NCBI GenBank assembly: GCA_027592325.1
Contig: JAQCKO010000001.1
Span: forward strand, 20,247 to 84,246
Direction of reading: 5' to 3'
DNA length: 64,000 bases
Source of the DNA: a bacterium
GTDB taxonomy: Bacteria; Patescibacteriota; Patescibacteriia; UBA9934
Shown here in pieces: positions 7,407 through 54,774 of the stretch. The first letter of the stretch is position 1; every line of letters starts with the position of its first letter. The position numbers and the translations under genes were made by a program. Below the pieces are notes generated by a model. That model saw only the letters and a list, made by a program, of their open reading frames with translations. It was not told the DNA's origin and made no database searches.

Positions 7407-7625
7407 AAGTCATCATGGATTAGATACGTCGAAATCATCCTCTTAAAAGAAGGATGATGTCGTCTTAAGTTCGCATGCCTTACATCCACGTGTCTCAACA
7501 CGTTGATTTTAGTGTCAGATAATCGATGCAGTTTTGGTGAATCGCGATGCGCGGAGCGAGCCGTACTAGAACGTACGGTGAGCGAGCACAGCAGCGATGA
7601 GCCGAAAATGCACGATTATATGGCG

Positions 7626-7841
7626 CTAAAATCTGTAAGTGATGCGGCCTTTTGTGAGATCATAAGGACTAATCTCAACTTTGACGTCATCGCCAGGCAT
7701 AATACGAATTCGGAATTTTCGCAATTTTCCTGACAGATGAGCGATAATTTCTTGGCCTCCGTCAAGTACCACTCGGAACTTGCCGGCAGGAAGAGCTTCT
7801 TCAACTCTTCCTCTTGCCTCGATGAAATCTTTTTCTGCCAT
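7626..7841 (-). CDS. infA: Translation initiation factor IF-1
   Basis: Internal Met of the 96-aa track [74 protein letters not shown] (71 aa) is a full-length S1-fold IF-1. Confidence 0.85.
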
Positions 7842-7960
7842 AAGTGCGAGAAGTCTAACAAATTCAGGCGCTTCTGGCAAGAACAATTTGGATGAAATCC
7901 GCCGGAAGTGTACCAAAATGGGGAAAATAAGTCAAATTGCACTGTGTCTGGATTGTAATC

Positions 7961-7989
7961 TTGACGTTTGAGAAGAAAACCCGTATATT
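7961..7989 (+). promoter_or_regulatory. Near-consensus sigma70-type promoter (TTGACG-17 nt-TATATT) for the 8037 gene
   Basis: -35 TTGACG at 7961-7966, 17-nt spacer, -10 TATATT at 7984-7989. GAGG RBS 5 nt before the ATG at 8037. Confidence 0.5.
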
Positions 7990-8036
7990 TAATCGTCACA
8001 AAACGGTGGATACCCCACCCGGTGACCTGAGGAAAA

Positions 8037-8474
8037 ATGCCCGCTGAAGAATGCCTGAAGGCTACACGTGATCTTGCCAAGCAGATCAGGCGGGTCACTG
8101 GCCTAAAGTCCCAATTTGCGGAAACGGACACGGGAACCGTCATCGTCTTCACCCATACGGGTACGACCGGGCTCGATCTACAGTTGGAACCTCAGCATCA
8201 TGGTGACGATTCTACGAGGATGAGTATCATGATCCGCGTCACCTGCAACGGCGAGTTCATGCACGCATACGTGAGCGTCTCGCCGGAGGGAGATTTCACC
8301 TGCATCGGTGAGGGTGGATGCGGTCATTCAACGGACGATTTTCCGGATGAGTTGTCCGACATGTTCGATGATCAGCCACACGACGCAGACGGTGTGAGGG
8401 AGGAGATCGAGCGCTCCGTCGGGGTCTGGTTGGACTACGGCAACCAAACGCCGAGCAATCTCGCATACACCTAG
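8037..8474 (+). CDS. Hypothetical Cys-containing protein in the GC-rich islet
   Basis: 145 aa. Own promoter and RBS. Local GC ~55-58% against ~45% in flanks. No family recognisable by eye. A CxxxxC-like TCIGEGGCGHS segment is present. Confidence 0.5.
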   Translation: MPAEECLKATRDLAKQIRRVTGLKSQFAETDTGTVIVFTHTGTTGLDLQLEPQHHGDDSTRMSIMIRVTCNGEFMHAYVSVSPEGDFTCIGEGGCGHSTDDFPDELSDMFDDQPHDADGVREEIERSVGVWLDYGNQTPSNLAYT

Positions 8475-8494
8475 CCCGGCGCTGGGCTGCTAGA

Positions 8495-8532
8495 CGCGCT
8501 TCCGACACACGGTCGGAGGCGCGTTTTCTCTT
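8495..8532 (+). terminator. Rho-independent terminator after the 8037-8474 gene
   Basis: GCGCTTCCGAC-ACAC-GGTCGGAGGCGCG stem-loop followed by TTTTCTCTT. Confidence 0.55.
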
Positions 8533-8616
8533 GTATAAGCGAAAGCGCCCACATCTCTGCAGGCGCCACGAGCTATTCAACGAGTACGAACTTGAAGTCG
8601 TCATCTGGAACACGGG

Positions 8617-9123
8617 CTAGGGCGTCGAGAAAACAGCGAGAACAGTGCCCCGTTTGAGAGCCTCGACAGTAAGCGTCGAGCCCCTCGGTACACGGGCGAC
8701 GTTTTCGAAAACGCTGACGGCGCGAAGAACCATCGACGTCTTCGTACCCGCGTCATTAGGCATCTGGAGGGTGATGCGAACGCTGCCCACAACCACCAGG
8801 AGCACCTTATCCTTCGTTTTGTGGTAGTGATCTCCTGCCGGCATCCCAATACGCTTTCCGCGTAGCATCGCGATCTGATCTTGGATCCATCCACGCACCC
8901 CAGGTCGCCCCTCAAAGACGACATAGTAGACGACATGGATTGTCTCAACTGGCACTCCCATGATATCGGCAATCACGGAAAGATGAGTCTGCACCAGATA
9001 GCGACCTGGCTTCGATCCATCTGGTGGAATCTGAAAAGACATTTGCTGCATGACACGAACCTCCCCGCGAAAACCTAGCAAAACAAATTGTAAATGACAA
9101 ACGCTGGATCCTGCAGTCCTCAC
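8617..9123 (-). CDS. Hypothetical protein, possibly cupin-like (GC-rich islet); the true start may be Met25 at 9051
   Basis: 168 aa. G-x5-HYH-x3-D-x6-G (IGMPAGDHYHKTKDKVLLVVVG) approximates cupin motif 1. Convergent with the 8037 gene. GC-rich. Confidence 0.4.
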   Translation of the reverse strand: MRTAGSSVCHLQFVLLGFRGEVRVMQQMSFQIPPDGSKPGRYLVQTHLSVIADIMGVPVETIHVVYYVVFEGRPGVRGWIQDQIAMLRGKRIGMPAGDHYHKTKDKVLLVVVGSVRITLQMPNDAGTKTSMVLRAVSVFENVARVPRGSTLTVEALKRGTVLAVFSTP

Positions 9124-10935: not shown

Positions 10936-12552
10936 TTATGCATCAACTCCAGAAAGTATCGCCTCCTCTGGTTTTGCCTTTTTTCGCACACGTCGCTCAA
11001 GTCCCACAAGAATAGACAATAGCTCCTCAGCACGAAGAACGTACAAAAGCGCTATATAAACAATAAACGCAAGGCTACCAGCGAATAACCCCTGGCCAAA
11101 TACACCCCAGAAGGTATTTAGTGTGAAACCGAGCGTTTCGGTGGCAATTGTTTTAAAGCCTTGTAATGATCCTGCTGTCACAATTCCCGCAATACTGAAT
11201 TTAATGAGTGCATTCAACACATCACTAAATCCATCTGCCTTTATGCGCGATGAAAGCAAGGCAAAAAGCGCAATCGCCTGTAGTACAGCAGACCCTGAGT
11301 ATGCGATTGCGATACCCTGAATCTGATAATGAGGAGTTAATAATAGTGCTGATGCAATGAATATTGTTGTACTCATAAGGCCAACAATAAACGGCGTCAT
11401 GGAATCATTCTTTGCAAAAAATGCTCTGACAAGAAGAAAAATGAGCCCATGTGCAATCAGACCCATCACAAGCCAACCCATCACATTGGCTGTTTGAATG
11501 GTCTCGGCCCAATCGTACGCACCAGCGCCAACAGCGACACGGACAATTTGCATACGGAGGCCATAGAAGAGAATGGTTGCAGGCACCATAAAAAGGAGCA
11601 TCTGTCGCATGGTAAGTGAAAGGATATCGCGAAAGTCTGCTGTGTCTCGTTTCCCTGCCTTTTCGCAAAGTGATGGAAACGCTGCGATGGCATAAGAAAC
11701 ACCGATAACACCAAGGGGGAAAAAGAATATATTATACGCAAATTGCAGCATGGTCACGGCGCCAACCGTGAGTGTAGATGCTATCGCTGTCATCGCAAGT
11801 AGATTCACCTGCCCTATGGCAAGACCCATCACGCGAGGTGGGAGGTGCCCCGCAATATAGCGAAGCGATGCGTCTCGAAAACGAAAAAGCAACCTGTACC
11901 GGTATCCAACAGCATATAGTCCGATAAGTTGAATCATGAGGTGAAAAAACGCCCCGCCGATCACACCAAATGCAAGCCCATTCAATCCAAATATTGGTAC
12001 GAGAAAAATTGATCCCAAAATGATTCCGAGATTGTAAAAAATAGGGGCAATAGCATACGGGAGAAAAACTTTTGCCCCCTGAAGCGCAGAACCAATCACC
12101 ATAGACGCTCCTAAAATAAGTTGTGCTACGAGCATGAGGCGTAGAAGCTCGATGACAGCAAGCTGTTTCTCGACGTCAAAACCGGGGGCAATGACATCAA
12201 CAAATACAGGAGCCATGATTGCAACAACAACCAGTAGCCCCGAGAAAATGACAGTGAGAATGGTGAGTGTATTACTCGTTAAATCCCATGCCTTCTGCTT
12301 GTGTTTTGCATATTCCTTTGTGAAAAGCGGAATGAAGCTTGCCGAGAGCGCCCCCACGACTATGAGCGCATAAAATAGATCAGGAAGTCGAAAGGCCGCA
12401 AAGTAAATATCAAGTTCATCTGATGCCCCGAATTCACCTGCAAGAATGCGATCTCGAATCAGCCCCACGATGCGCGATAAAATCGAAAAGAAGGCAACCA
12501 AAAATGCGGCGCTTGTAACCGTTCTTGCTGACCGTGATAATGCTTGCCTCAT
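10936..12552 (-). CDS. murJ: Lipid II flippase MurJ (MviN family)
   Basis: 538 aa, 14 TM. N-terminal ...ILSRIVGLIRDRILAGEFGASDELDIYFAAFRLP is the MurJ signature. Confidence 0.85.
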   Translation of the reverse strand: MRQALSRSARTVTSAAFLVAFFSILSRIVGLIRDRILAGEFGASDELDIYFAAFRLPDLFYALIVVGALSASFIPLFTKEYAKHKQKAWDLTSNTLTILTVIFSGLLVVVAIMAPVFVDVIAPGFDVEKQLAVIELLRLMLVAQLILGASMVIGSALQGAKVFLPYAIAPIFYNLGIILGSIFLVPIFGLNGLAFGVIGGAFFHLMIQLIGLYAVGYRYRLLFRFRDASLRYIAGHLPPRVMGLAIGQVNLLAMTAIASTLTVGAVTMLQFAYNIFFFPLGVIGVSYAIAAFPSLCEKAGKRDTADFRDILSLTMRQMLLFMVPATILFYGLRMQIVRVAVGAGAYDWAETIQTANVMGWLVMGLIAHGLIFLLVRAFFAKNDSMTPFIVGLMSTTIFIASALLLTPHYQIQGIAIAYSGSAVLQAIALFALLSSRIKADGFSDVLNALIKFSIAGIVTAGSLQGFKTIATETLGFTLNTFWGVFGQGLFAGSLAFIVYIALLYVLRAEELLSILVGLERRVRKKAKPEEAILSGVDA

Positions 12553-13745
12553 GTGTTCTTTCTACGTTGTTTTTTCTCTGCGTCGGGTTCAAGCGTTTTT
12601 TGCCCTTTTGTGTACAAAACACCATCCTCCGTTGTGAGTATGCGGCGGCGTTTTGTGCCACGGGTTTTTAATCCCAATACCCCAACAAGTGTTAGAAGTA
12701 TAAGGAGAACGAGTAAAGTAATTATAAGTTGTACGAGTGGATTTTGAATATGGAAAAATGAAACCGTAAGAAGAGCTTCATCGGTTGTCGTTATTCCATC
12801 GTCATGCAATGCGGTTAACGTGACCTTGTACGTACCTGGACCGCGAAATTCATGACCAATAGATGTCTGCACCGACGATGACCCATCACCAAAATCCCAT
12901 TTGTAAGAAATATTGTCTTGTGCATCGATCACACGAAACGCATACGCTCTCCATTTTAATACCTCATAGGTAAAATATGATCCGAACGACACGCGCTCCC
13001 CAGCGGTATTGTCCGCGATCTCCTCAATCGTAAATTCTGTTGAATAATCCTCTTTCATTACATTAGCAACTCCCCTTTCAGAGATATCAGTCATGATTAT
13101 AGGGTTCACTGATGGAAGAACTCCGAGTTCAGGTTCAAGCAATGGCGCGTCAACAAGCTCCCCACTCTGGTCATTCGACCCCACAGTGATGGGCTCAGAA
13201 TCACTCACATTTTCGGCGTTTCGCTCATCTTCGTCACAAGCGTATCCTTCCCCATCTGCGTCATCATCGCGTTGATCAGCATTCGGGGTATCTCGACAAT
13301 TATCTTCCTCATCAATTACCCCGTCAGCATCGGAATCAAATACAGGAACAAAAAGGTTGCTCAAATATTCGTTATTTCCCGCATATTCATCTGGTGGGTT
13401 AATCCCACGTAATTCTGCACGAATATTAAATGGACCTTCTGGAATAATAAAATCAATCCAAACATCCTCGCTTTCTCCATCAGCTGCCAGAGAAATTACT
13501 TGACTTGGTCCGAGCGGCGTTGGTCCTTGGTAAAAATACACATAGCCAGAAACATCAACATTCCCAATATTGCGAACACTTGCATATAATCGAGCTTCTT
13601 CGCCTGCAATCAGTGGATCTACCGAGAATCGCACAGAGTGTTTATTTATCTCTATGTCTGCCCCGCTCGTTTGTGCCACAGCTTGGATGGGTGTGCATAG
13701 CAGCAATATCAAAAGAAGAAAACGCATACTAATTCCGTTTATCAA
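12549..13745 (-). CDS. Secreted/membrane-anchored surface protein with thrombospondin type-3 (calcium-binding) repeats and a PKD domain
   Basis: 398 aa. Signal peptide MRFLLLILLLCTPIQAVAQ. Aspartate-rich DxDxDGxxD repeats (DSDADGVIDEEDNCRD...DDDADGEGYACDED). PKD-like YKWDFGDGSS...GTYKVTLTA. C-terminal TM anchor. Confidence 0.65.
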   Translation of the reverse strand: MINGISMRFLLLILLLCTPIQAVAQTSGADIEINKHSVRFSVDPLIAGEEARLYASVRNIGNVDVSGYVYFYQGPTPLGPSQVISLAADGESEDVWIDFIIPEGPFNIRAELRGINPPDEYAGNNEYLSNLFVPVFDSDADGVIDEEDNCRDTPNADQRDDDADGEGYACDEDERNAENVSDSEPITVGSNDQSGELVDAPLLEPELGVLPSVNPIIMTDISERGVANVMKEDYSTEFTIEEIADNTAGERVSFGSYFTYEVLKWRAYAFRVIDAQDNISYKWDFGDGSSSVQTSIGHEFRGPGTYKVTLTALHDDGITTTDEALLTVSFFHIQNPLVQLIITLLVLLILLTLVGVLGLKTRGTKRRRILTTEDGVLYTKGQKTLEPDAEKKQRRKNT

Positions 13746-33063: not shown

Positions 33064-34059
33064 CTAAAATGGATGAAGCAAATTATGACGTCTTGACTGT
33101 TTTTCCGTTAATCGGCTTCGAAGCGCAGCACCAATCGCCGTCAAGTATAGAAGCACCTCATTTTGCTCGACGAATGGAATGGATAATCGTTCAACTACCG
33201 GAAATACATTTAATGAAAGAGATGTGAGCGTTGACAGTTGATCCGGACCTATCACTCCTGCATCGCCGGCCAGATACAGTCGAGGAATCTCGTACCCTAA
33301 CGAACGAAAATGCGTTACCACGCGCTGTATAGACGATTCGATCAGTTGCATTTCCACTGTATCAACGCGATTATCATGTTTGACGGCATTGTTTGCAGAA
33401 CGTATTGCACCTAGCGGTATAGAACGTGAGAAAAAGAGTCCACCAAAATAATCAAATAAACTTATTGTCGGCCAGTCACTATCTAGCTCAAGCAGCACTG
33501 CCAGTTCATTGTCTTTCAGAGCAACAATTTCACTACCAAAGTGTAAAATTGCACGATAATTGCTAAGCGCCTGCATTTCTATCACGGTCAAATCTACCTT
33601 TGGTACATGCAAAGCGCTCTGTATGTGGCCAGTATCTTCTCGTTCAGCCATGTACACGTCAAGGAGTAGGTAGTCATTCACACGTGCCGATTCTTCGATA
33701 GAGATGACGGCATCAGCGGTTTCTATAGGTGATCGACGCGCGACAGCCTGTAAAAGGTCGGCTTGAAACTGTACCTCAGACAGGCCTGATTTACACCAAA
33801 TACCCATGGTATACATACGGGAATTTGGCATCGATGCAATGGCGGAAATACGTCCGAGCGAACCTAGAAATGGCTCCAATGTTCTTAGAACTTCTTCTCC
33901 ATGTTGAATACGCCCGTCAACAATCATGCCTTCTGGAATAGGAATAGTCTGAAGCGCATGAATCGAACCTTTATTTGCAAGGACGGCGCATCGAACGCTT
34001 TGATCTGTAAATTGGATGCCAACAGTTTTTCCTCCCATATAGGGCATATTTAGCCCCAT
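33064..34059 (-). CDS. pilM: PilM-like type IV pilus assembly protein (actin-like ATPase fold), divergent
   Basis: 331 aa. Last gene of the pilus operon. N-terminal GIQFTD in place of the GIDIG phosphate-1 motif. Assignment rests partly on context. Confidence 0.5.
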   Translation of the reverse strand: MGLNMPYMGGKTVGIQFTDQSVRCAVLANKGSIHALQTIPIPEGMIVDGRIQHGEEVLRTLEPFLGSLGRISAIASMPNSRMYTMGIWCKSGLSEVQFQADLLQAVARRSPIETADAVISIEESARVNDYLLLDVYMAEREDTGHIQSALHVPKVDLTVIEMQALSNYRAILHFGSEIVALKDNELAVLLELDSDWPTISLFDYFGGLFFSRSIPLGAIRSANNAVKHDNRVDTVEMQLIESSIQRVVTHFRSLGYEIPRLYLAGDAGVIGPDQLSTLTSLSLNVFPVVERLSIPFVEQNEVLLYLTAIGAALRSRLTEKQSRRHNLLHPF

Positions 34060-34071
34060 TATACCATGAGG

Positions 34072-34572
34072 CTATCGCGTGAGAGAGATCGAAGAAGTAT
34101 TCTCAGATTCGCAGGCTTGAATAGTAATCGAGCCAGTCGTTGCCTTAGTGATGACGTATCCTGTTGTTCCTGCAGTCCAAGCAGTTGCACCTTGTGGACT
34201 AATTGGCATGGAACCCATGTATCCCTCCGTAACTAATCCACTCAAATCGGCACAGTGTGTATCACTCGCAACAGTTGCATCACATGTGTCGTCATCACAG
34301 CCGGTTGAATCCGTACCAATCATATATATTTGTGCGGCTGTCATATTATCTTTTATCTCTGTCAAATAATCGCCGCCATTATCTACCTGATCAATCTTAA
34401 TCGCATGAAGCAGCTCAGCGATATCAGAGAAGCGCCGAGCGTCACGTGCATCTTGAAATCGTGTACCTGGGTCAAGCGCCGCAAATACCACAGCCGCAAG
34501 GACGGCAAGAATAGAGATGACAATTAATAATTCAACGAGCGTGAATCCTTTTTGTGAAGAAAATCTTTTCAT
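34072..34572 (-). CDS. Type IV major pilin (prepilin N-terminal methylation motif)
   Basis: Start at MKRFSSQKG|FTLVELLIVISILAVLAAV. Cleavage after Gly, Phe+1, Glu+5. A C-terminal Cys pair (CDDDTC...C) for a disulfide loop. ~166 aa. Confidence 0.75.
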   Translation of the reverse strand: MKRFSSQKGFTLVELLIVISILAVLAAVVFAALDPGTRFQDARDARRFSDIAELLHAIKIDQVDNGGDYLTEIKDNMTAAQIYMIGTDSTGCDDDTCDATVASDTHCADLSGLVTEGYMGSMPISPQGATAWTAGTTGYVITKATTGSITIQACESENTSSISLTR

Positions 34573-34606
34573 AGATATGATTGGAAGTATTTTACCATAG
34601 GTGCGA

Positions 34607-35038
34607 TCAATCAATCTCACTCCAACTGGTGATATCTACCGACGAACCACTGACAGAAATTGCTGCAGATGCATTACGCACGTAGCCATTATTATCCGAT
34701 TCGACTGTAATTGTGCATGATGACGAGCATGGCGTTGCAGAGATAACAATCGTGCAATCAGCATTTCCCACACTTATGGCTCCGCCTGAATACGATGTGT
34801 CACGAGAAATACGTAACATTGCTTCATGAACACACGACTCTGCCGCTCCAATCGCATGGCCAGAAGCACGCGTCCCCTCCCCTAGCTCAATCGATCCAAT
34901 GGTCAAAAACACAAGACTTGATGTAACCACGAGTACAAGCGCTGTAAGTACCACAATACCTACCGTTGCCGCTGCGCCACGCGTATCAGACCTCAAGCGG
35001 GATACGAATAGCTGTTTGAAATTCTTCAACATAGTCAA
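34607..35038 (-). CDS. PilX-like pilus assembly protein (N-terminal PilX_N-type hydrophobic segment, no Glu+5)
   Basis: 143 aa. RG-AAATVGIVVLTALVLVVTSSL. Confidence 0.45.
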   Translation of the reverse strand: MTMLKNFKQLFVSRLRSDTRGAAATVGIVVLTALVLVVTSSLVFLTIGSIELGEGTRASGHAIGAAESCVHEAMLRISRDTSYSGGAISVGNADCTIVISATPCSSSCTITVESDNNGYVRNASAAISVSGSSVDITSWSEID

Positions 35039-35504
35039 AAAATGGTGAATTAGATGAGTTTATCGCTTCTAAAGTGTACTCGACCAAAACGATTCCTGCA
35101 TCATCAGCACTTGTAAGATTCGTGAAAACGAGATTCGTCACACGAACACGACCGGTTGTTAATTGTGTTGTTACGCCATTTATTCCTATTTGTAACGATC
35201 CATCATCTTCTGTCAGACTAAAGACCGTTGGATCTTCGCCGGAATCAACCATCGCGAACCGAAGCACTCCTGGATCAACGTCGAATGTTGAGCTTCCGAC
35301 CGTAATACTTGCTGCATGTCGGGCTGCATACGACAGTTTTGCCTGTATGATCGCGGCATTGTAGGCAACTTCAGCGAGCACCTCTGATTTTGCGCGATTT
35401 CGTGTCAGCGTTACAACATACTGCGTAGTAGCGATGAGGACAGAGCTCACAATCGCGACGTACAAAATCATCTCTACAAGGGTTGATCCACGCTTATTCA
35501 ACAT
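34986..35504 (-). CDS. Minor pilin / pseudopilin (prepilin-type)
   Basis: 172 aa. MLNKRG|STLVEMILYVAIV with Glu+5. Confidence 0.65.
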   Translation of the reverse strand: MLNKRGSTLVEMILYVAIVSSVLIATTQYVVTLTRNRAKSEVLAEVAYNAAIIQAKLSYAARHAASITVGSSTFDVDPGVLRFAMVDSGEDPTVFSLTEDDGSLQIGINGVTTQLTTGRVRVTNLVFTNLTSADDAGIVLVEYTLEAINSSNSPFFDYVEEFQTAIRIPLEV

Positions 35505-38319
35505 AGGAAATTGTCACATCTTCGAGCACCGGTGATGCCGATGTTGTTCCTGTCATATAGGCTTTCCACTGAAACCACTGCGTTCCACTTGTACCCGAAT
35601 GTGTCGCGAGCGAATCTCCACTTGTAGTGAATGTTGTTGCCGGGGTTCCATCTGACCCAACCCAAAGCGCATCGGCAAGCTCCGCCTCCGATGACGCTGT
35701 TCGAATACGAAATACAATATCGCCCGTCCCCGATTCCGTCCACTCAATCAATTGCCAGCTTGCAGAGGTTGATCCAGAATCATACGGTTGTGATGTGAAA
35801 TTGCCCTCATACGCATAGTCAGAAATGCTTCCTGGACCGAGTATCTGTAACTCAAGCGCATCATTCGCTGAGGCAACGTATGCATAGGTGCCGTCGTGGA
35901 AGACCCCTTGACCCCAATCATTCAAATCATACGTCACTTGCTGAGTCATAGAACCAGAAGAAACCGTCCAGCGTTGAAATTCATCATCTGTGTCCTCTGA
36001 TGCAATATAAATCGCCGCCCCACCACTTTCAACAAAGATATCCCAAATATCACCGGCAACATCGGCCGTTGTGAGCTCAGCAGGTGATCCGGGTGTTGAA
36101 ATGTCAAATTGATGAATTTCCGGATCAGCACTTAAAGTTCTTCCAACGTATAAGATCTCATTTGTGCTATCCACCTCAATTTCGAAGGCATCTGCAGCAC
36201 CAGTCAAATCTTGAGAAGAGCTTGTCAAAGAGGCCGGTGTTGACCAATCAAAAATCCATAACTCATTTGATGCGCCCGCACCATACATATAATCATCGTA
36301 AAATTTGATGCGTCGAATGTGCGTTCCGGTATTAACTGAATCCACAAATGAAGGGCTGGCGACACTCGATACATCGATAAGAAAAACTTCGTCCGCGGTC
36401 GATGCAAATCGTCCTAGCGTCACATAATTGCCTGATTTATCGAGTCCAATGCCATCTGAAGCCCCAGATGCGTCATAAAACCCCGCGCGCGTAGGAGATG
36501 ATTTCGTGGAAATGTCAATAATATCAAGCTCACGATTATTATGCGTTGTGGCTAAATAGGCGTAATTTCCATCAACCACCAAGTCATTCACATATGCACC
36601 AATTTCAAACCATCCCGTTAAAGAAGGTGTCGACGGAGTAGAAATATCGTAAATCAGAAACTCTGGCCCCGATGCGTCAGGATACGTTCCAATGTAAGCG
36701 TAATCGCCAGACACAACGATCGGACGTGCATTCGCTGTTCCAGAGATATTAGCCGATCCTATACTCGATAATACCGCCCATCCCCCTGTAGATGGCCCCA
36801 TTACCACAAGTTCACCGCTTCCATCTGAAGTGACATAAAAAATGTAACTTCCATAATCTGCAATATCGAGCGGCTGAGCGGCCAAATCGATGTTTTCATC
36901 TTCTGTGAGTCCATCAAGATCAATGATTTGCAAGTCTTCGGACGCATTTGTAGATGCAACAAATGCACGATCCGTATTCGGGTCAACAGAAAATGCCCTA
37001 TGTGTATTGCCTGTAATTAATGAGTCACCCACAGCAAACGATGATGCTGGATTGGTAATATCAATTTCGTAAAAACTTGCAATCGTCCCGCTTCCATCTC
37101 GCGAGACATAAAGAATCGTGCCGCTCACAGCAATGTGATAACTTGTTTGAGTTCCAACTAAATCAAGATCTGCAACCTCAGAATAATCAGATAAATCCAT
37201 CACCGCGAGCTCCTTTGATGTATTAGCCGTTGCAATATATGCATAGCTACTGTCAAGGGCGATGTCGCGCACACGGGCCGTTGCATCATAAGAACCGAGG
37301 AAGGACGGTGAGGCCGGGCTTGCAAGACTGTAAACAAATACTTCATCACCAGATGCATCGTTTGCTCTACCAACGACAAGTGTTGAATCAATAATCGCAA
37401 CGTCGTATGCATCCTCCGTCCCAGAAATATCGACGCTACCTACTTCTGTCATCGTGAGCAAATTTACAATTACAACCTCTTTTGCATCATCGCCGGTTAC
37501 CACATATCCATACTCTGTATAAATCGCAAGGTCATACGGCGTATACGAGCCAAGCTCAATTCCATCAATAAGGGTAGGTGCCACATTTTCAACGTTTGAC
37601 ACATCGTAACGATTTAATTCATCCCCAGTTGTTGCATCGAGCAGTACAAGGAGCTCATCCTGCGACTCCCATAGCAATAGCTCGATAGGAGCTGCACTCC
37701 CCGGGAGTGAGACAGTATACAATTCTTCAAGTGTAGACCAATCTGTTGAAACAGTCCGTAGGTCAATATCGCCGTCTCCTGATGCTGCCTGAGCCGTTGA
37801 CCCAAAAAAACTTCCATTATTAAATTCTGAGAGTAAATCTTGTGTCCACGTTTGTACTGCTGCAAAGTTGTACACGTAAAACACATGCGAGAGATTTACC
37901 AGTTTACTCGCCAATGTATACCAATTGATTGAAATTGTGATCTTTTTTGTTGCAGAATCTGCGACTCCACTTGCAGCAATATCCCCCGTAAGACTACCCG
38001 TTCGTGTGACATCTTCAACCAAAATACTGCGTGTATAGTTAGTAAGCACGCTTTCTGAACCAGATGCAAGTGCATAGCTTCCTAAAGCGGTATCTAAATG
38101 ATATGTTCCAGATGAAATGGTAGAAAAGTCTTGGTATGCAACAGAACGCACTCCCTCTATGCCTTCTTGAAGTAACCCAGAAGCAGCCACATAGTCAACC
38201 CCCTGTTTTCCTGATGCCGTAGCACGAAAAAGTGCACCAACCCCCGCTGATGCAAGCAAAGCGAAAATAGCGATGGCGAGTAGTATTTCGAATAATGCTA
38301 ACCCACGCTCGTCCTTCAT
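35494..38319 (-). CDS. Giant prepilin-like protein with a C-terminal beta-propeller (LVIVD-type repeats); putative pilus tip adhesin (PilY1-analogous)
   Basis: 941 aa. MKDERG|LALFEILLAIAIFALL (Gly, Glu+5), followed by many repeats of the form Y[AD][VI]A...D.YAY[IV]A...(S/T)...EL..(I/M)D, typical of beta-propeller blades. Confidence 0.65.
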   Translation of the reverse strand: MKDERGLALFEILLAIAIFALLASAGVGALFRATASGKQGVDYVAASGLLQEGIEGVRSVAYQDFSTISSGTYHLDTALGSYALASGSESVLTNYTRSILVEDVTRTGSLTGDIAASGVADSATKKITISINWYTLASKLVNLSHVFYVYNFAAVQTWTQDLLSEFNNGSFFGSTAQAASGDGDIDLRTVSTDWSTLEELYTVSLPGSAAPIELLLWESQDELLVLLDATTGDELNRYDVSNVENVAPTLIDGIELGSYTPYDLAIYTEYGYVVTGDDAKEVVIVNLLTMTEVGSVDISGTEDAYDVAIIDSTLVVGRANDASGDEVFVYSLASPASPSFLGSYDATARVRDIALDSSYAYIATANTSKELAVMDLSDYSEVADLDLVGTQTSYHIAVSGTILYVSRDGSGTIASFYEIDITNPASSFAVGDSLITGNTHRAFSVDPNTDRAFVASTNASEDLQIIDLDGLTEDENIDLAAQPLDIADYGSYIFYVTSDGSGELVVMGPSTGGWAVLSSIGSANISGTANARPIVVSGDYAYIGTYPDASGPEFLIYDISTPSTPSLTGWFEIGAYVNDLVVDGNYAYLATTHNNRELDIIDISTKSSPTRAGFYDASGASDGIGLDKSGNYVTLGRFASTADEVFLIDVSSVASPSFVDSVNTGTHIRRIKFYDDYMYGAGASNELWIFDWSTPASLTSSSQDLTGAADAFEIEVDSTNEILYVGRTLSADPEIHQFDISTPGSPAELTTADVAGDIWDIFVESGGAAIYIASEDTDDEFQRWTVSSGSMTQQVTYDLNDWGQGVFHDGTYAYVASANDALELQILGPGSISDYAYEGNFTSQPYDSGSTSASWQLIEWTESGTGDIVFRIRTASSEAELADALWVGSDGTPATTFTTSGDSLATHSGTSGTQWFQWKAYMTGTTSASPVLEDVTISYVE

Positions 38320-38768
38320 AATGTTGAGATGGTTCCGATGGCATTAATCGTCACCGCCACTGTTCGCGATGTATTCTCGTCTGTAATCGTCAGAGTTTGC
38401 GCCCCTGAAGCTGCATCGCCATTTCCGAAATCAAATCGTATGGTATTACCACCGCTATTTGAAATGGAAAGCTGGCCAGAAAGCGTATGTACTTCATCGT
38501 AATTTGTATCGCGTGATCCGTATGTTGCTCCTTTAAAAAGAGTATAGGATGTTGAATCGATCCGCACACTCCACATGTCATCTGATTCGCCATACATCGT
38601 CCTTAGCTGTGCTCTGCGTAATACTTCGATCAATCCATCCTCTGCTAGTTCAAGCTGATGGTTAGCGAATGCACGACCGGTGAGTGCCGTACTTATAACA
38701 GATAGCGTGGTAATGAGCGCGACCACGATAATGACCTCGACGAGGGTGAAGCCAAACTGTTTCGTCAT
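38316..38768 (-). CDS. Pseudopilin / minor pilin (GspH/FimT-like)
   Basis: 150 aa. MTKQFG|FTLVEVIIVVALI. Confidence 0.7.
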   Translation of the reverse strand: MTKQFGFTLVEVIIVVALITTLSVISTALTGRAFANHQLELAEDGLIEVLRRAQLRTMYGESDDMWSVRIDSTSYTLFKGATYGSRDTNYDEVHTLSGQLSISNSGGNTIRFDFGNGDAASGAQTLTITDENTSRTVAVTINAIGTISTL

Positions 38769-39859
38769 ATTGTGACACTGCCAGTGATTGAATAAATTGG
38801 CGTCAAAATAGAAAGTGCCAATAAGCCGACAAAAAGACCAAGCGCAATAAGGAGAACTGGTTCAATCATTGATGCAAGATTTTTCGATAAGACTTCTATA
38901 CGCTCCTCATAATAATCTGCCAAATAATTGAGTGTTGCTCCCAAATGCCCTGACCGCTCTCCGACTGCCGCCATACGCCTCAACATTTTCGGATACAATT
39001 TTGGGGCAATTTCCAAACTTTCCGACAGTGTCATGCCGGTTTTTACGCGTTCAAGTGCGCGCTTCGCCATCTGTTTATATGCGACATTCCCAAGCGCATC
39101 GCTCGTTACTTTAGTTGCCTCGACAATCGGCGTACCGCTCTCAAGTAGTGTTGAAAGGATTCGACAAAACCGTGCTCGCTGATAGTCGTTCACAAAGCTA
39201 TTGAGTCCTGGTATGTATAAATATGTTCTATCAATATACGGCCGTGCAAATGGCAGACGTGACAACATCACACTCCCAATCAAGACAGCAATCGTGAAAA
39301 CAGTAATAAGAAGGCCATGCCGATCAAAAAGGTTTGCCGTCCAGATAAGCGCACGTGTTGTAATTGGTAACTCAACATTAAGCGAAGTAAAAACATCGGT
39401 AATTTGTGGCAAAACAAAATTTGCTATTCCAAAAAACAAGGCAAGTGACGCAGTAAATACAAGTCCAGGGTAAAGCATAGACGATTGAACCTGTCGCTTA
39501 ATTTTCAAGTCACGCTCCATTTGAATAAATACACGCTCTAAATTCATTGCAAGGGTTCCAGACTGTTCTCCAATGATAATCGAGCTCACAATAAATGGCT
39601 TAAAAATACGTGGTTCAAGCTGTAATGCATCGCCTAGGCTCGCCCCTGCATGCACACGCTTTGATAGACGTTCTAAAACTGGTCGCAATGCACTCCGTTT
39701 GGGTGATTGATCAAAGAGAATATCAAGCGACTCCGGGAGCGTCAGTCCAGCAGAAAGCATAACGGACAAGTTTTTTAAAAACTGAACTAAGTCGACTCCT
39801 TTAACGCCTGTCGTTATTTGAAATGCGAGAATCTTTTTAAGCAGGGTTTTGTTCGCCAT
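38765..39859 (-). CDS. pilC: Type IV pilus platform protein PilC (GspF family)
   Basis: 364 aa. Two GspF repeats with 3 TM. 4-nt overlaps on both sides. Confidence 0.85.
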   Translation of the reverse strand: MANKTLLKKILAFQITTGVKGVDLVQFLKNLSVMLSAGLTLPESLDILFDQSPKRSALRPVLERLSKRVHAGASLGDALQLEPRIFKPFIVSSIIIGEQSGTLAMNLERVFIQMERDLKIKRQVQSSMLYPGLVFTASLALFFGIANFVLPQITDVFTSLNVELPITTRALIWTANLFDRHGLLITVFTIAVLIGSVMLSRLPFARPYIDRTYLYIPGLNSFVNDYQRARFCRILSTLLESGTPIVEATKVTSDALGNVAYKQMAKRALERVKTGMTLSESLEIAPKLYPKMLRRMAAVGERSGHLGATLNYLADYYEERIEVLSKNLASMIEPVLLIALGLFVGLLALSILTPIYSITGSVTI

Positions 39860-39860
39860 A

Positions 39861-41552
39861 CTACTTCGTTACGCGCAATACTTCTTCAAGTGCAGTCACA
39901 CCAGCAAGCGCCTGCTCGACGCCATGCTGAAGCATCGTCACCATTCCTTCCTGAATAGCCACCTCTTGTATTTCATCACTGTTTTTTTGCTGCATGATTG
40001 CAACGCGTACGGCATCAGTTACTTCAAGGATTTCAAAAATCCCAACGCGACCACGGAATCCTGTTTGACCACAAACTGGACACCCTTTTGCATGAAAAAG
40101 CCTTAATTCTGCGAACGGGCGACCAGCAAGCTGCTTTTCGATTGCCGCCTTCACCTCTGGACGTGATTCGATCAATTGCAACTCTTCAGCACTAGCTTGC
40201 TTACTGTACAAACATTTTCTACATAGCTGCCTCACAAGTCGCTGTGCAACGACACCAATCATTGTTGAGCTGATCAAAAACTCCTCTACCGACATATCGC
40301 GAAGTCTTGGAAAAGCGGTTGCCGCATTGTTTGTATGAAGCGTTGAAAGCACTAAATGGCCTGTCAGTGCTGCGTTAACGGCAATATCGGCTGTTTCTGA
40401 ATCACGAATTTCTCCGACCATAATAATATCGGGGTCTTGACGCACAATTGAACGTAACCCTTTTGCAAATGTCAGCTTTGTTTTTTCATTGACTTGAATT
40501 TGATTTACCCCATCAATATCGTACTCTACAGGATCTTCAATGGTCGAAATATTGACATTGCGTTTATTGAGCATTTTTACGCCAGCATACAATGTCGTCG
40601 TTTTACCACTCCCCGTCGGTCCGGTGACTAAAATCATTCCCCATGGTTTCTTAATTGCATCCGCGAACAAGTCAAGTTCCCGAGTGTGGAATCCCAAATC
40701 ACGTAAGCTAAATTGTCGTGAACGCTCAGAAAGCAGTCGCATCACGACTTTTTCTCCGTCAGTGACAGGGACAATTGAAACACGAATTTCAATATCTTCC
40801 TTTCGCTTTGATTCATACGATATCTTTCCGTCAAGGGCGGACTGATGTTCATCAGTTGGTAATCGAGATAACACTTTTATACGCGTCACCATATGGTCGT
40901 GCAGTTTTTTCGGCACGGTCACGACATCGTGCAATAATCCATCAACTCGAAAACGTACTAAGGTCTCTTCATCCTCTGGTTCAATATGTACGTCTGATGC
41001 TCTCGCTTGGTACGCACGTTCTATAAGTTCCTCAACCAACTGAATGACAGCCTGACCGGAAGCATCGATATCTTTTCCACCTGCACGCTCAATATAATCT
41101 GCAAGGACCGTCTCTGCATCCTTTTCAAAAAGGTGATAATGCGATGTTAAATCTCGCGGCGTAACAAATACGTAACGAATTTCATGCCGAGTAAATTTTT
41201 CAAGAAGACTTTTTGTCTCTAGATCGCCAGGATGTGAGGTTGCAACGCGTATAAATCCTTCATGCAATTGAAGCGGAAAGACATGATTCGCCCTTGCAAA
41301 ACTTTCAGGAATAAGCCGAAGAACGTTACGATCAACCTGAAAATCTGCAAGCTCTAAAAACGGTACACTTAACATATCGGCAATTAATTGTCCTATTTGA
41401 CGATCTTCAAGAGCATCTGATTCAACTAAAACAGTGTAAAGATCCTTTTGTTCTTTTTTTGCCGTTTCACTTGCAGCAGTGAAGGTCTCTTCCGTAACTG
41501 CTCCAGACGTTACAAGTGCTTTTTTGTATTGTTCCTCCGAAAGTAATGACAT
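39861..41552 (-). CDS. pilB: Type IV pilus assembly ATPase PilB (GspE family)
   Basis: 563 aa. Walker A LVTGPTGSGKTTT, Asp box, His box, and a tetracysteine motif CPVCGQTGFRGRVGIFE. Confidence 0.9.
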   Translation of the reverse strand: MSLLSEEQYKKALVTSGAVTEETFTAASETAKKEQKDLYTVLVESDALEDRQIGQLIADMLSVPFLELADFQVDRNVLRLIPESFARANHVFPLQLHEGFIRVATSHPGDLETKSLLEKFTRHEIRYVFVTPRDLTSHYHLFEKDAETVLADYIERAGGKDIDASGQAVIQLVEELIERAYQARASDVHIEPEDEETLVRFRVDGLLHDVVTVPKKLHDHMVTRIKVLSRLPTDEHQSALDGKISYESKRKEDIEIRVSIVPVTDGEKVVMRLLSERSRQFSLRDLGFHTRELDLFADAIKKPWGMILVTGPTGSGKTTTLYAGVKMLNKRNVNISTIEDPVEYDIDGVNQIQVNEKTKLTFAKGLRSIVRQDPDIIMVGEIRDSETADIAVNAALTGHLVLSTLHTNNAATAFPRLRDMSVEEFLISSTMIGVVAQRLVRQLCRKCLYSKQASAEELQLIESRPEVKAAIEKQLAGRPFAELRLFHAKGCPVCGQTGFRGRVGIFEILEVTDAVRVAIMQQKNSDEIQEVAIQEGMVTMLQHGVEQALAGVTALEEVLRVTK

Positions 41553-41917
41553 TAGGCGAGTTCCGCTTTGATTTTGTCGATCACATCTCCAATAGATGTA
41601 TCTGATTTCACAATAAAATCTTTTGCGCCGAGTTCTTTTGCCCGAGCCATATCTTCATCTTGTCCAAGATTTGACAGCACATAAACAGGAATAGTGTTTA
41701 GATCACTATCTGCAGACATTGCTTCAAGTACTCCAAATCCATCGAGCTTTGGCATGATAAGATCGAGTAAAATGAGTTTTGGACGAGCGCCTCGCATCAT
41801 TTCAAGCCCCATTTCTCCGTCAACAGCAAACTCTGCATCAATCCCTTCGTTTTTGAGCTTCGTACTGTAAATTTTTGAGAGGAATTTATCGTCCTCAATA
41901 ATCAACACTTGAGCCAT
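41552..41917 (-). CDS. Stand-alone CheY-like response regulator receiver
   Basis: Start at MAQVLIIEDD. Phospho-acceptor Asp in LLDLIMP. Its stop overlaps the pilB ATG (TAATG). Confidence 0.75.
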   Translation of the reverse strand: MAQVLIIEDDKFLSKIYSTKLKNEGIDAEFAVDGEMGLEMMRGARPKLILLDLIMPKLDGFGVLEAMSADSDLNTIPVYVLSNLGQDEDMARAKELGAKDFIVKSDTSIGDVIDKIKAELA

Positions 41918-41939
41918 ACTAACTTCATTATACCATTTT

Positions 41940-43634
41940 TTACCACGATCCACCTCCGCCTCCACCAAAACCACCCCCAGAGACTCCCCCACCAGATGAA
42001 CCGCTTGACGTCGGAGCGGCCGCAGATGCAATACTTGTCGTAACCGCGCTGAGATCATTCAAGACGGTCAAAGCACCGTACTGTACTCCATTTGCATGAA
42101 CCCATTCCGGAGTTTTGACGTTGATATCCTTGAATACGTTCGCCCATTTATGCGTAAGTTTAAACGCGATCGCGTAGGGAAGCATTGTTGTAAATAATTG
42201 TTCATCTTCTTCAAATTTAGCACGATATGTTTCTGCTGTTTCTAAATAGAGTTTGAATCCGAGCAATCTTCTCACCAATTCATTACCAGCTGGCGTACGC
42301 TTTGGCATCAATACTCCAAAACAGACGGTCAAGAGCCCTGAAAACACTGATGTCACAATCAATAAACTCCCATATACGGTCCCGCCAAAAAATGTACCCA
42401 TGACAAATATCGCCATGCCCACCAGCATAAAGACAATCACATGTCTGTGACTATTTTTTGTGAAGATATCGGCGTTGTCTATTGCCTGTTTTAGCTTCGG
42501 TTTCACTTGTGTTTCTATTTTTTCTGCGCCGTTTTTTTTGAATGCAGCGAGCGTAACCGTTTCACGTTCGGAAAACAACAGATCAAAAAGCGCTTTATGC
42601 GCAGAATCAAGTCCTTCCCCGTCGCGTTTTTTTACAAAATGTAATTTGGTTTCAGGAATTCGCTTAGATGTATGCTCATCAACAACAATCGTCAGGTACC
42701 CGCTTGAAGCAAGGGTAATAATCATGACAGAAATATCATGAGAGACTACTCCCGTGCGCGTAAACATTCCTGCATATGTTGGCAGTAAATCGTTAGGGGA
42801 TTCGTACTCTGCAATAATGGTATGCATTCTAGGGTCTCGGCCATGTCTGAACCAAAACCATACGACAAAGAATATCCAAATAAGGGGCATTGCTGCGAGC
42901 CAATTATCTTCTAGAAACCACGTCAAACGCTCGGAACCCAAAGGCTCTCTCACAATACCTTTTGTGAACCCAATCGCTATTGTCCCAAATCCATCACCGG
43001 TAAAAATAGCCCCCTGATCAAGAGCATCTTCCGACGTTTTTTCTATTGTACAGTTTTGTTCCTTAGAGCCGAATGTCCCCGTATAACAACTTTCCTCAAG
43101 CGAATATGCTCCTTCTGGCAATCTTACCGACCCACTAAACATACTTACAGGCACCTCCCACTCTTCCCCTGTCACATTCCAGTAGAATTCATCTTTGTCC
43201 TCTAAGTAGAGAAGCGCCCTGTCAACGGTATAAAAAATTGTGTAATTGTGTTGCCGCTGAGTAAGGTAGACGTCCGGGTCTCCGATTTTAATGCGTACAT
43301 AGCGTCCTGCGCGAGAAATTTCGAACGGAACTTCCTTTCCATCCATATATACCGCATACACATCTAGTTCAATACGTTGTCTATTTCCAAATTGATCCGT
43401 GTAACGGAATGGAATATCCCGAAATATGCCATGTTTCATTGATCCTTCAAAGAAATTCGTAGCTATTTCTTCTCGCACCGAAATTGTCGCGTCTTCATGT
43501 ATCTCAATATCAACATGCATCCGATCAATCGCCCAGCTACCCGAAGAAGGCTGTGCGTCTACAAGTCGCGGAAAAAGAAAACTACTCGAGGAACAGATTA
43601 CGATTAACAATATGACCTTCCAGTGTTTCTGCAT
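41940..43634 (-). CDS. DUF2207-family membrane protein with a Gly-rich C-terminal tail
   Basis: 564 aa. Signal peptide, large N-terminal domain, 3 TM, and a C-terminal SSGSSGGGVSGGGFGGGGGGSW tail. Confidence 0.6.
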   Translation of the reverse strand: MQKHWKVILLIVICSSSSFLFPRLVDAQPSSGSWAIDRMHVDIEIHEDATISVREEIATNFFEGSMKHGIFRDIPFRYTDQFGNRQRIELDVYAVYMDGKEVPFEISRAGRYVRIKIGDPDVYLTQRQHNYTIFYTVDRALLYLEDKDEFYWNVTGEEWEVPVSMFSGSVRLPEGAYSLEESCYTGTFGSKEQNCTIEKTSEDALDQGAIFTGDGFGTIAIGFTKGIVREPLGSERLTWFLEDNWLAAMPLIWIFFVVWFWFRHGRDPRMHTIIAEYESPNDLLPTYAGMFTRTGVVSHDISVMIITLASSGYLTIVVDEHTSKRIPETKLHFVKKRDGEGLDSAHKALFDLLFSERETVTLAAFKKNGAEKIETQVKPKLKQAIDNADIFTKNSHRHVIVFMLVGMAIFVMGTFFGGTVYGSLLIVTSVFSGLLTVCFGVLMPKRTPAGNELVRRLLGFKLYLETAETYRAKFEEDEQLFTTMLPYAIAFKLTHKWANVFKDINVKTPEWVHANGVQYGALTVLNDLSAVTTSIASAAAPTSSGSSGGGVSGGGFGGGGGGSW

Positions 43635-54616: not shown

Positions 54617-54686
54617 CAGAGCCGAAGCTGAGTGGTCAGCGCCGACATGGCAGTCGGAGGTCGCAGGTTCGAATCCTGCCGGCTCT
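54617..54686 (+). tRNA. tRNA-like gene with canonical acceptor, D and T arms (GGTTCGAATCC) but a 6-nt anticodon loop (ATGGCA); identity undetermined, possibly GGC-like
   Basis: AGAGCCG/CGGCTCT acceptor, GCTG-AGTGGT-CAGC D-arm, GCAGG-TTCGAAT-CCTGC T-arm. The only consistent anticodon stem (CCGAC/GTCGG) leaves a 6-nt loop. No encoded CCA. Confidence 0.55.
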
Positions 54687-54688
54687 AT

Positions 54689-54760
54689 TGCATCTGTAGC
54701 TCAACTTGCTAGAGCAGCGAACATGGTTCGAAGGTCAACGGTTCAAACCCGGTCAGATGC
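54689..54760 (+). tRNA. tRNA-like gene / possible tRNA pseudogene: D-loop lacks GG, and the anticodon arm is 2 nt short (CGAA-CATGG-TTCG)
   Basis: GCATCTG/CAGATGC acceptor, GCTC-AACTTGCTA-GAGC D-arm, AACGG-TTCAAAC-CCGGT T-arm (one mismatch). 2 nt after the previous tRNA. Confidence 0.4.
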
Positions 54761-54774
54761 ATTCTTCCGCGCAT

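Follow-up and report, generated by a model that had tools for sequence, protein, structure and literature searches.

A probable modular type IV minor pilin with two predicted LVIVD β-propellers: a candidate pilus-tip adhesin of a patescibacterium

The gene described here lies at positions 35494..38319 on the minus strand of a 64,000-nucleotide stretch (the window) from a bacterium of the Patescibacteriota (lineage UBA9934; contig JAQCKO010000001.1, positions 20,247 to 84,246 of the forward strand). Its product of 941 amino acids (aa) joins a prepilin N-terminus and a small pilin module to two seven-bladed β-propellers of the LVIVD type and to a conserved C-terminal β domain. The explanation we favour, with moderate confidence, is that the protein is a modular type IV minor pilin from a bacterium belonging to the candidate phyla radiation (CPR, or Patescibacteria) and that its propellers are carried to the pilus tip to bind a host cell or a particle. 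Both the adhesin role and the location at the tip are suggested by analogy with known systems.

The reading frame had been correctly delimited in the first-pass annotation, which was made from the nucleotide letters alone. It is the longest open reading frame (ORF) of its region, reads from an ATG at 38319 on the minus strand and ends in a stop codon at 35494-35496. The protein is identical to the deposited entries MDA0207840.1 / MDA1024401.1, which carry the annotation ‘hypothetical protein’.

The N-terminus reads MKDERG↓LALFEILLAIAIFALLASAGVGALF (it begins MKDERG↓LALFE), the arrow marking the predicted cut by a prepilin peptidase after Gly6. It comprises a charged leader peptide of six residues (MKDERG, residues 1-6; 38302..38319, minus strand), a glycine at position -1, a glutamate at position +5 (Glu11) and a hydrophobic stretch of ~25 residues following the leader (mean Kyte-Doolittle value of 2.4 over residues 7-31). 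Across 32 aligned relatives, the glutamate at +5 never varies and the glycine at -1 is at least 90% conserved. A hydrophobic stretch preceded by the pattern [G/A/S]xxxxE is present in 103 retrieved relatives, the -1 residue being glycine in 91 and alanine in 11 of them. Their consensus is G↓(Q/F)SL(I/V)E and their leaders are mostly 6-20 residues long; orthologues are named ‘prepilin-type…’, ‘PulG’ or ‘PilV’ by NCBI and JGI. The type IV pilin-like N-terminus noticed at first reading is thus upheld by family conservation and by a predicted helix, residues 7-63, which runs into a pilin β-sheet.

This fold was examined with AlphaFold2. The full-length model was computed from a 9-sequence alignment (mean predicted local distance difference test, pLDDT, of 76.1; predicted template modelling score, pTM, of 0.46). 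It shows a helix at residues 8-63, a β-sheet at 71-150, a low-confidence region at 152-195, strands from 197 to 829 and a C-terminal β domain at 838-940. A separate model of the N-terminal part (pLDDT 89.8) contains one continuous helix, 7-63, leading into the pilin β-sheet. The pilin module therefore spans residues 7-150 (37870..38301, minus strand) and consists of the α1 helix (7-63, with Glu11) and an antiparallel β-sheet (71-150), that is, the α/β pilin fold is found after α1. Its closest structural neighbours are pseudopilins of the type II secretion system (T2SS; GspI/GspK-like), with a sequence identity of 5-11%. When the PDB was searched with the N-terminal profile, only weak matches to pilins over the N-terminal part of α1 (α1N) were returned. 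Sequence searches of the PDB found no meaningful relative of the whole protein and none of the C-terminal profile.

The pilin module is followed by a linker (residues 151-196; 37732..37869, minus strand) with the motif W158-x-Q-(T/D)...F166-xx-G169...G183. Its columns are conserved, and its pLDDT in the full-length model is below 50. The first propeller (residues 197-510; 36790..37731, minus strand) and the second (residues 511-830; 35830..36789, minus strand) each comprise seven LVIVD-type blades. The Pfam LVIVD model (PF08309) matches the protein with 76.9 bits (E=7e-22, cutoff 20.2), best at residues 576-616 within the second propeller, and TIGR04312 (‘choice-of-anchor B’) gives a partial match at E=4e-16, below its cutoff. 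Self-BLASTP of the protein detected no internal repeats; a hidden Markov model (HMM) iterated on the protein itself was needed to find them, and delineates 13 adjoining units, each about 44 aa (41-47) long, between residues 230 and 818, with an E-value of 1e-9 to 1e-20 for each. In the full-length model these units fold as propeller blades: residues 197 to 829 hold exactly 56 strands, which form 14 four-stranded blades, mostly with a pLDDT of 80-94. Taken together, these features lie well outside the reach of chance. The propeller fold proposed for the repeats is therefore what AlphaFold2 returns, as two seven-bladed propellers. The accompanying statement that the remaining ~900 residues are all repeats holds for residues 197-830, and does not extend to the pilin module (7-150), the linker (151-196) or the C-terminal domain (831-941).

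This last domain (~110 aa, residues 831-941; 35497..35829, minus strand) is the most conserved part of the family. It is modelled as a β domain with a pLDDT of 50-65, and S843, D847, W860, R873, W886, G888, G891 and others are invariant in it. In the 941-aa protein the domain receives no Pfam assignment; among 31 relatives scanned, it gives a weak F5/8-type-C match in three and a weak galactose-binding match in two. In one relative of 1228 aa (P0003), a ~290-aa insertion lies inside this domain, between the ‘W..I.WT’ and ‘SGTG’ motifs; the loop between the two motifs therefore tolerates large insertions.

The composition of the protein is also distinctive. Its net charge is -98, of which -79 falls on the propellers, and the family is uniformly acidic with a mean net charge of -7.6 per 100 aa. 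Glycine, alanine, serine and threonine make up 40.3% of the residues versus 25-28% in PilB, PilC and PilM, and such a raised content is the bias described for exposed pilins (PMC11623550).

In order to define the family, a profile was searched against 1.84 billion cluster representatives. Tens of thousands of generic LVIVD matches were obtained, with mostly full-length relatives at the top of the list, and the whole architecture is common to about 100 cluster representatives. A 7-sequence alignment of the C-terminal domain, searched against genome contigs, identified nine related loci; the named matches from these genome collections belong to Uhrbacteria (3) and Peribacteria/Peribacteraceae (3). 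Further named relatives come from Peregrinibacteria and from a ‘Patescibacteria group’ bacterium. Other searches reached less far. No relative was found among GTDB representative genomes with the single 941-aa protein. Word-indexed homology searches gave no match for the N-terminal 199 aa and, for the C-terminal 121 aa, only two fragments belonging to the family (P0189 and P0190).

The lengths of ~105 relatives with a prepilin N-terminus cluster at ~605-640, 925-1000, 1260, 1650 and 1998 aa. We read these classes as one, two, three, four and five propellers (23, 65, 13, 3 and 1 members, respectively), and stepwise variation of this kind would suit a recognition module that is diversifying. Compared with the 941-aa protein, the mean identity of the relatives is 40% in the C-terminal domain, 30-32% in the pilin module and 26-31% in the propellers, and the linker residues W158, F166, G169 and G183 are kept family-wide.

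The gene is embedded in a type IV pilus (T4P) operon. On the same strand, the order is response regulator, PilB, PilC, a 150-aa pilin, the 941-aa gene, pilins of 172, 143 and 182 aa, and PilM; the 941-aa gene thus has T4P assembly genes and four further pilin-like genes as neighbours. The upstream minor pilin (150 aa, MTKQFG↓FTLVE; 38316..38768, minus strand) is GspH/ComGD-like (Pfam N_methyl 24.9 bits, GspH E=7e-4; NCBIfam ComGD E=6e-6), and the stop codon of its gene overlaps the start codon of the 941-aa gene in an ATGA. The downstream minor pilin (172 aa, MLNKRG↓STLVE; 34986..35504, minus strand) has weak N_methyl and GspI matches, and the start of its gene overlaps the end of the 941-aa gene by 11 nucleotides (nt). 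Because of these start/stop overlaps, the 150-, 941- and 172-aa pilin genes are considered translationally coupled.

The next gene (34607..35038, minus strand) overlaps its upstream neighbour by ~50 nt and encodes, from a TTG start, a pilin-like protein of 143 aa (…DTRG↓AAATVGIVVL) which lacks Glu+5 and has a weak PilX_N match. It is a candidate GspK/PilX/ComGG-like subunit that may cap the filament. On a Uhrbacteria-type contig (L002), the ~140-aa gene likewise overlaps the gene upstream of it. The 182-aa ORF (34072..34620, minus strand; likely start MKRFSSQKG↓FTLVELLIV) has the best N_methyl scores of the operon (PF07963 36.3 bits, TIGR02532 33.7) and is the candidate major pilin. A PilM-like assembly protein follows (33064..34059, minus strand; TIGR01175 pilM E=4.7e-10, below its cutoff). 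At the other end of the operon are the platform protein PilC/T2SSF (38765..39859, minus strand; PF00482 E=8e-54), the extension ATPase PilB (39861..41552, minus strand; PF00437 E=8e-126, MshEN E=2e-16) and, upstream of PilB, a single-domain response regulator recognised from its sequence (41552..42058, minus strand), the true start of which is probably the internal MAQVLIIEDD. Directly upstream of the operon, a 564-aa multi-pass membrane protein with a glycine-rich tail (…SGSSGGGVSGGGFGGGGGGSW) is encoded at 41940-43634 on the minus strand; as listed, its ORF overlaps that of the response regulator.

The same arrangement recurs in at least six other loci. In every checked locus (L001, L002, L003, L004, L007 and L010) the order is PilB-(PilT)-PilC-pilin (~150 aa)-LVIVD pilin-pilin (~170 aa), and a fourth gene of ~140-170 aa follows wherever the contig reaches far enough. 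A PilT of ~330 aa is encoded between PilB and PilC in L001 and L007, and the response regulator upstream of PilB is shared by L003 and L004. L001 belongs to Candidatus Uhrbacteria and L010 to a Peribacteria genome. Two loci, L007 and L013, are labelled ‘uncultured Gammaproteobacteria bacterium’ (third-party annotation, TPA, assemblies). Because L007 has the CPR-type operon order, this label is probably a binning or taxonomy error and is no evidence for occurrence in Proteobacteria.

In T2SS and T4P, assembly is primed by minor pilins, which come to lie at the tip, and a subunit lacking Glu5 caps the filament. By analogy, the following sequence of events can be proposed. The prepilin would enter the membrane via its hydrophobic α1N helix and would be cut after Gly6 by the prepilin peptidase (PilD). 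Together with the 150-, 172- and 143-aa minor pilins, the 941-aa protein would then form a priming complex on PilC/PilM, capped by the 143-aa protein without Glu+5. PilB would polymerise the 182-aa major pilin beneath this complex, so that the acidic propeller array of ~85 kDa reaches the pilus tip. At that position the array would engage a ligand, probably a glycan or protein exposed on the surface of a particle or host cell, and this contact would tether the ultra-small cell to its partner.

Such an architecture has already been catalogued. The concept of ‘modular pilins’, in which a pilin module is combined with one or more extra modules whose signature is not specific to T4P biology, is that of Raynaud et al. 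(2021, PNAS, PMC8179133), and the 941-aa protein conforms to it with its class III signal, small pilin module and grafted module. Dataset S1 of that study lists IPR012902-IPR013211 architectures (N-methyl plus LVIVD repeat, IPR013211) for about 30 proteins with 1-13 detected repeats, and its text cites an 860-aa pilin of Candidatus Falkowbacteria with 12 such motifs ‘of unknown function’ (PMC8179133). There the architectures were counted, without structure, operon context or family analysis of the LVIVD class (PMC8179133). Here, in contrast, the repeats resolve into whole seven-bladed propellers, flanked by a linker and a C-terminal domain, in a fixed CPR operon slot. The fusion of a pilin with a propeller, which the first-pass annotation had called unusual, is real; the adjective was an overstatement given these ~30 catalogued proteins and the published work on PilX2 (PMC11623550).

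PilX2 of the saccharibacterium Nanosynbacter lyticus TM7x, itself a CPR bacterium, is the closest functional precedent. It is a minor pilin with a lollipop-shaped pilin module and a C-terminal seven-bladed RCC1 propeller, and its gene adjoins the major pilin gene (PMC11623550). Deletion of PilX2 halves host binding while filaments and competence are retained, and a role as tip adhesin or lectin has been proposed (PMC11623550). The two proteins differ in several respects: PilX2 has a single RCC1 propeller and no predicted PilD signal, whereas in the 941-aa protein the propellers are two and of the LVIVD type, the N-terminus is canonical (Gly-1/Glu+5) and an additional conserved C-terminal domain is present. 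No sequence relationship to PilX2 was detected, and the Pfam scan gave no RCC1 match.

Comparisons with other systems further delimit the family. The 5-11% identity of the pilin module holds for the GspI/GspK pseudopilins (XcpV/XcpX, EpsI) and for PilV/PilX of type IVa pili (T4aP). In GspK, the extra domain is α-helical and inserted into the pilin sheet, and Glu+5 is missing. In contrast, the extra modules of the 941-aa protein follow the pilin module, Glu+5 is present and the model contains no α-domain, so that it does not qualify as a cap subunit of the GspK/PilX type. Surface proteins with LVIVD repeats (PF08309) are found in archaea and bacteria and were predicted to form propellers (Adindla et al. 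2004, PMC2447325). They share the repeat family with the 941-aa protein, but are anchored by Sec signals plus PGF-CTERM, by Por/type IX secretion (T9SS) or by other means; in the family described here, the pilin module replaces those anchors.

Several observations weigh against our interpretation. The 941-aa protein scores below the cutoffs of the generic prepilin models (PF07963, 17.1 versus 21.2 bits; TIGR02532, 13.0 versus 16.3 bits). Of three scanned orthologues, two pass the PF07963 cutoff (P0002 with 28.1 and P0006 with 23.5) and one fails (P0009 with 17.8). The low scores reflect a sensitivity shortfall of a model of 24-27 positions and are no contradiction. Furthermore, no prepilin peptidase was found in the 64-kb window (no A24-like ORF and no GxGD(V/I)K motif), although processing of the 941-aa protein by PilD is presumed. 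No PilT is encoded in the window either, PilC following PilB directly. The presence of Glu+5 means that this pilin is not necessarily the topmost subunit. The linker and the C-terminal domain are the most conserved parts, not the propellers, and the key function or ligand site may lie elsewhere. Lastly, the inter-domain geometry is uncertain, given the pTM of the full-length model and the low pLDDT of the linker.

Some of these points bear on the main alternative, in which the pilin-like part acts as an anchor without a filament. The membrane, or else a very short pseudopilus, would then hold the propellers, and the protein would be a surface receptor or adhesin rather than a fibre-tip adhesin. 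Archaeal bindosome proteins and T2SS pseudopilins are models for such an anchoring. The lack of PilT in the window, the very large ectodomain (~790 aa beyond the pilin module) and the resemblance of the pilin module to T2SS pseudopilins are in line with this proposal. However, the operon includes PilM and, as a separate protein, a candidate for the major pilin whose N-terminus is canonical, PilT is encoded at the orthologous Uhrbacteria locus, and the slot among four minor pilins is translationally coupled and conserved. In addition, TM7x provides a documented case both of pili on CPR cells and of a candidate tip adhesin built to the same design. We judge filament-free anchoring to be possible but unlikely.

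A second alternative keeps the protein in the tip complex and assigns it a mainly non-adhesive task, either as a primer or stabiliser of assembly or as a DNA receptor of a competence pilus, for which ComZ of the Thermus minor-pilin operon offers a comparison. The location of the gene in the core minor pilin set and the higher conservation of the linker and C-terminal domain relative to the propellers would agree with such a role, and non-adhesive functions of large modular subunits have been discussed (PMC8179133). On the other hand, a propeller copy number ranging from one to five is typical of diversifying surface recognition rather than of assembly factors, and TM7x requires PilX2 for host binding but can extrude filaments and remain competent without it. 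A DNA-receptor function in particular is judged unlikely because of the acidic charge, which amounts to -98 in the protein, is concentrated on the propellers and recurs across the family. Taken as a whole, a mainly non-adhesive role appears rather improbable.

The two remaining alternatives are effectively excluded. In the first, the protein would be a Sec-secreted or lipid-anchored LVIVD surface protein resembling a prepilin by chance and cut by signal peptidase I, e.g. after ‘ASA’ (residues 23-25). This AxA-like sequence after the hydrophobic stretch, the sub-cutoff N_methyl and TIGR02532 scores and the fact that most LVIVD proteins are not pilins could be quoted in favour. Yet ‘ASA’ is not conserved in the 32-sequence alignment, Gly-1 and Glu+5 are, and helix 7-63 continues into the pilin sheet. 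The signal is therefore of class III, an assignment settled by the family conservation of Gly-1/Glu+5 despite the sub-cutoff scores, and a signal-peptidase-I signal is very improbable. Even less credible is a PilY1/PilC-family adhesin with an acquired pilin N-terminus, since neither PF05567 nor IPR008707 was matched in the Pfam scan at E<=0.1 and PilY1 was not among the top structural matches. A β-propeller displayed on type IV pili is common to PilY1 and the 941-aa protein, a resemblance treated in PMC8179133.

PilY1/PilC of T4aP is a functional analogue, that is, a propeller adhesin displayed at the tip by a minor pilin complex. As the first-pass annotation had stated, PilY1-type adhesins are normally not pilins themselves, and PilY1 serves as an analogy only. 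Its propeller is of a different family and docks non-covalently on minor pilins, whereas the propellers described here are covalently fused.

Returning to the favoured modular minor pilin, we also considered a more specific and rather speculative version of it, to which we assign a low probability. LVIVD-pilins may be CPR-specific ‘expandable’ tip adhesins in which the linker and the C-terminal 110 aa form a split β-sandwich with one to five propellers inserted. The sandwich may be lectin- or galactose-binding-like, and may either dock on the pilin/tip complex or bear the invariant ligand site. In a Pfam scan of nine relatives, joining the linker to the C-terminal domain gave weak F5/8-type-C/galactose-binding hints no better than those without the linker. 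If the split sandwich were correct, the number of propellers and their surface would govern reach as well as host range, and the gene would be a host-specificity determinant of uncultured episymbionts among the Uhrbacteria and Peribacteria.

Outside the pilus operon, three regions of the window deserve mention. At 54618-54761 on the plus strand, Rfam finds two tRNAs (54618-54687 and 54690-54761) which are 2 nt apart; ARAGORN calls the first only, as ‘tRNA-???’ with the anticodon ‘gg’. A predicted surface protein of 398 aa is encoded at 12549-13745 on the minus strand. By eye, it contains an aspartate-rich stretch (…DSDADGVIDEEDNCRDTPNADQRDDDADGEGYACDEDE…) like thrombospondin-type-3 calcium-binding repeats and a PKD-like segment, and has a transmembrane helix at its C-terminus. 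Lastly, two ORFs of 178 and 168 aa with GTG starts are listed at 7616-9123 on the minus strand, between ribosomal-protein genes and alaS. Their translations are atypical and free of low complexity, and they may not be real genes; no RNA family was found in this region by Rfam at gathering thresholds.

The deposited ‘hypothetical’ protein could be renamed modular minor pilin. What is new lies at the family level: a propeller number that varies from one to five, the conservation of both the linker and the C-terminal domain, and the fixed operon slot in Uhrbacteria/Peribacteria-type lineages. The general picture of pilus biology is unchanged; the family extends a known strategy, the grafting of a module on a minor pilin, together with the precedent of PilX2. 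Most Patescibacteria are uncultured, and beyond the oral Saccharibacteria little is known of how CPR bacteria locate their hosts and stay attached to them. In this context, the LVIVD pilins offer a candidate, tied to a pilus operon, for the subunit with which the type IV pili of Uhrbacteria- and Peribacteria-like lineages would recognise a host.

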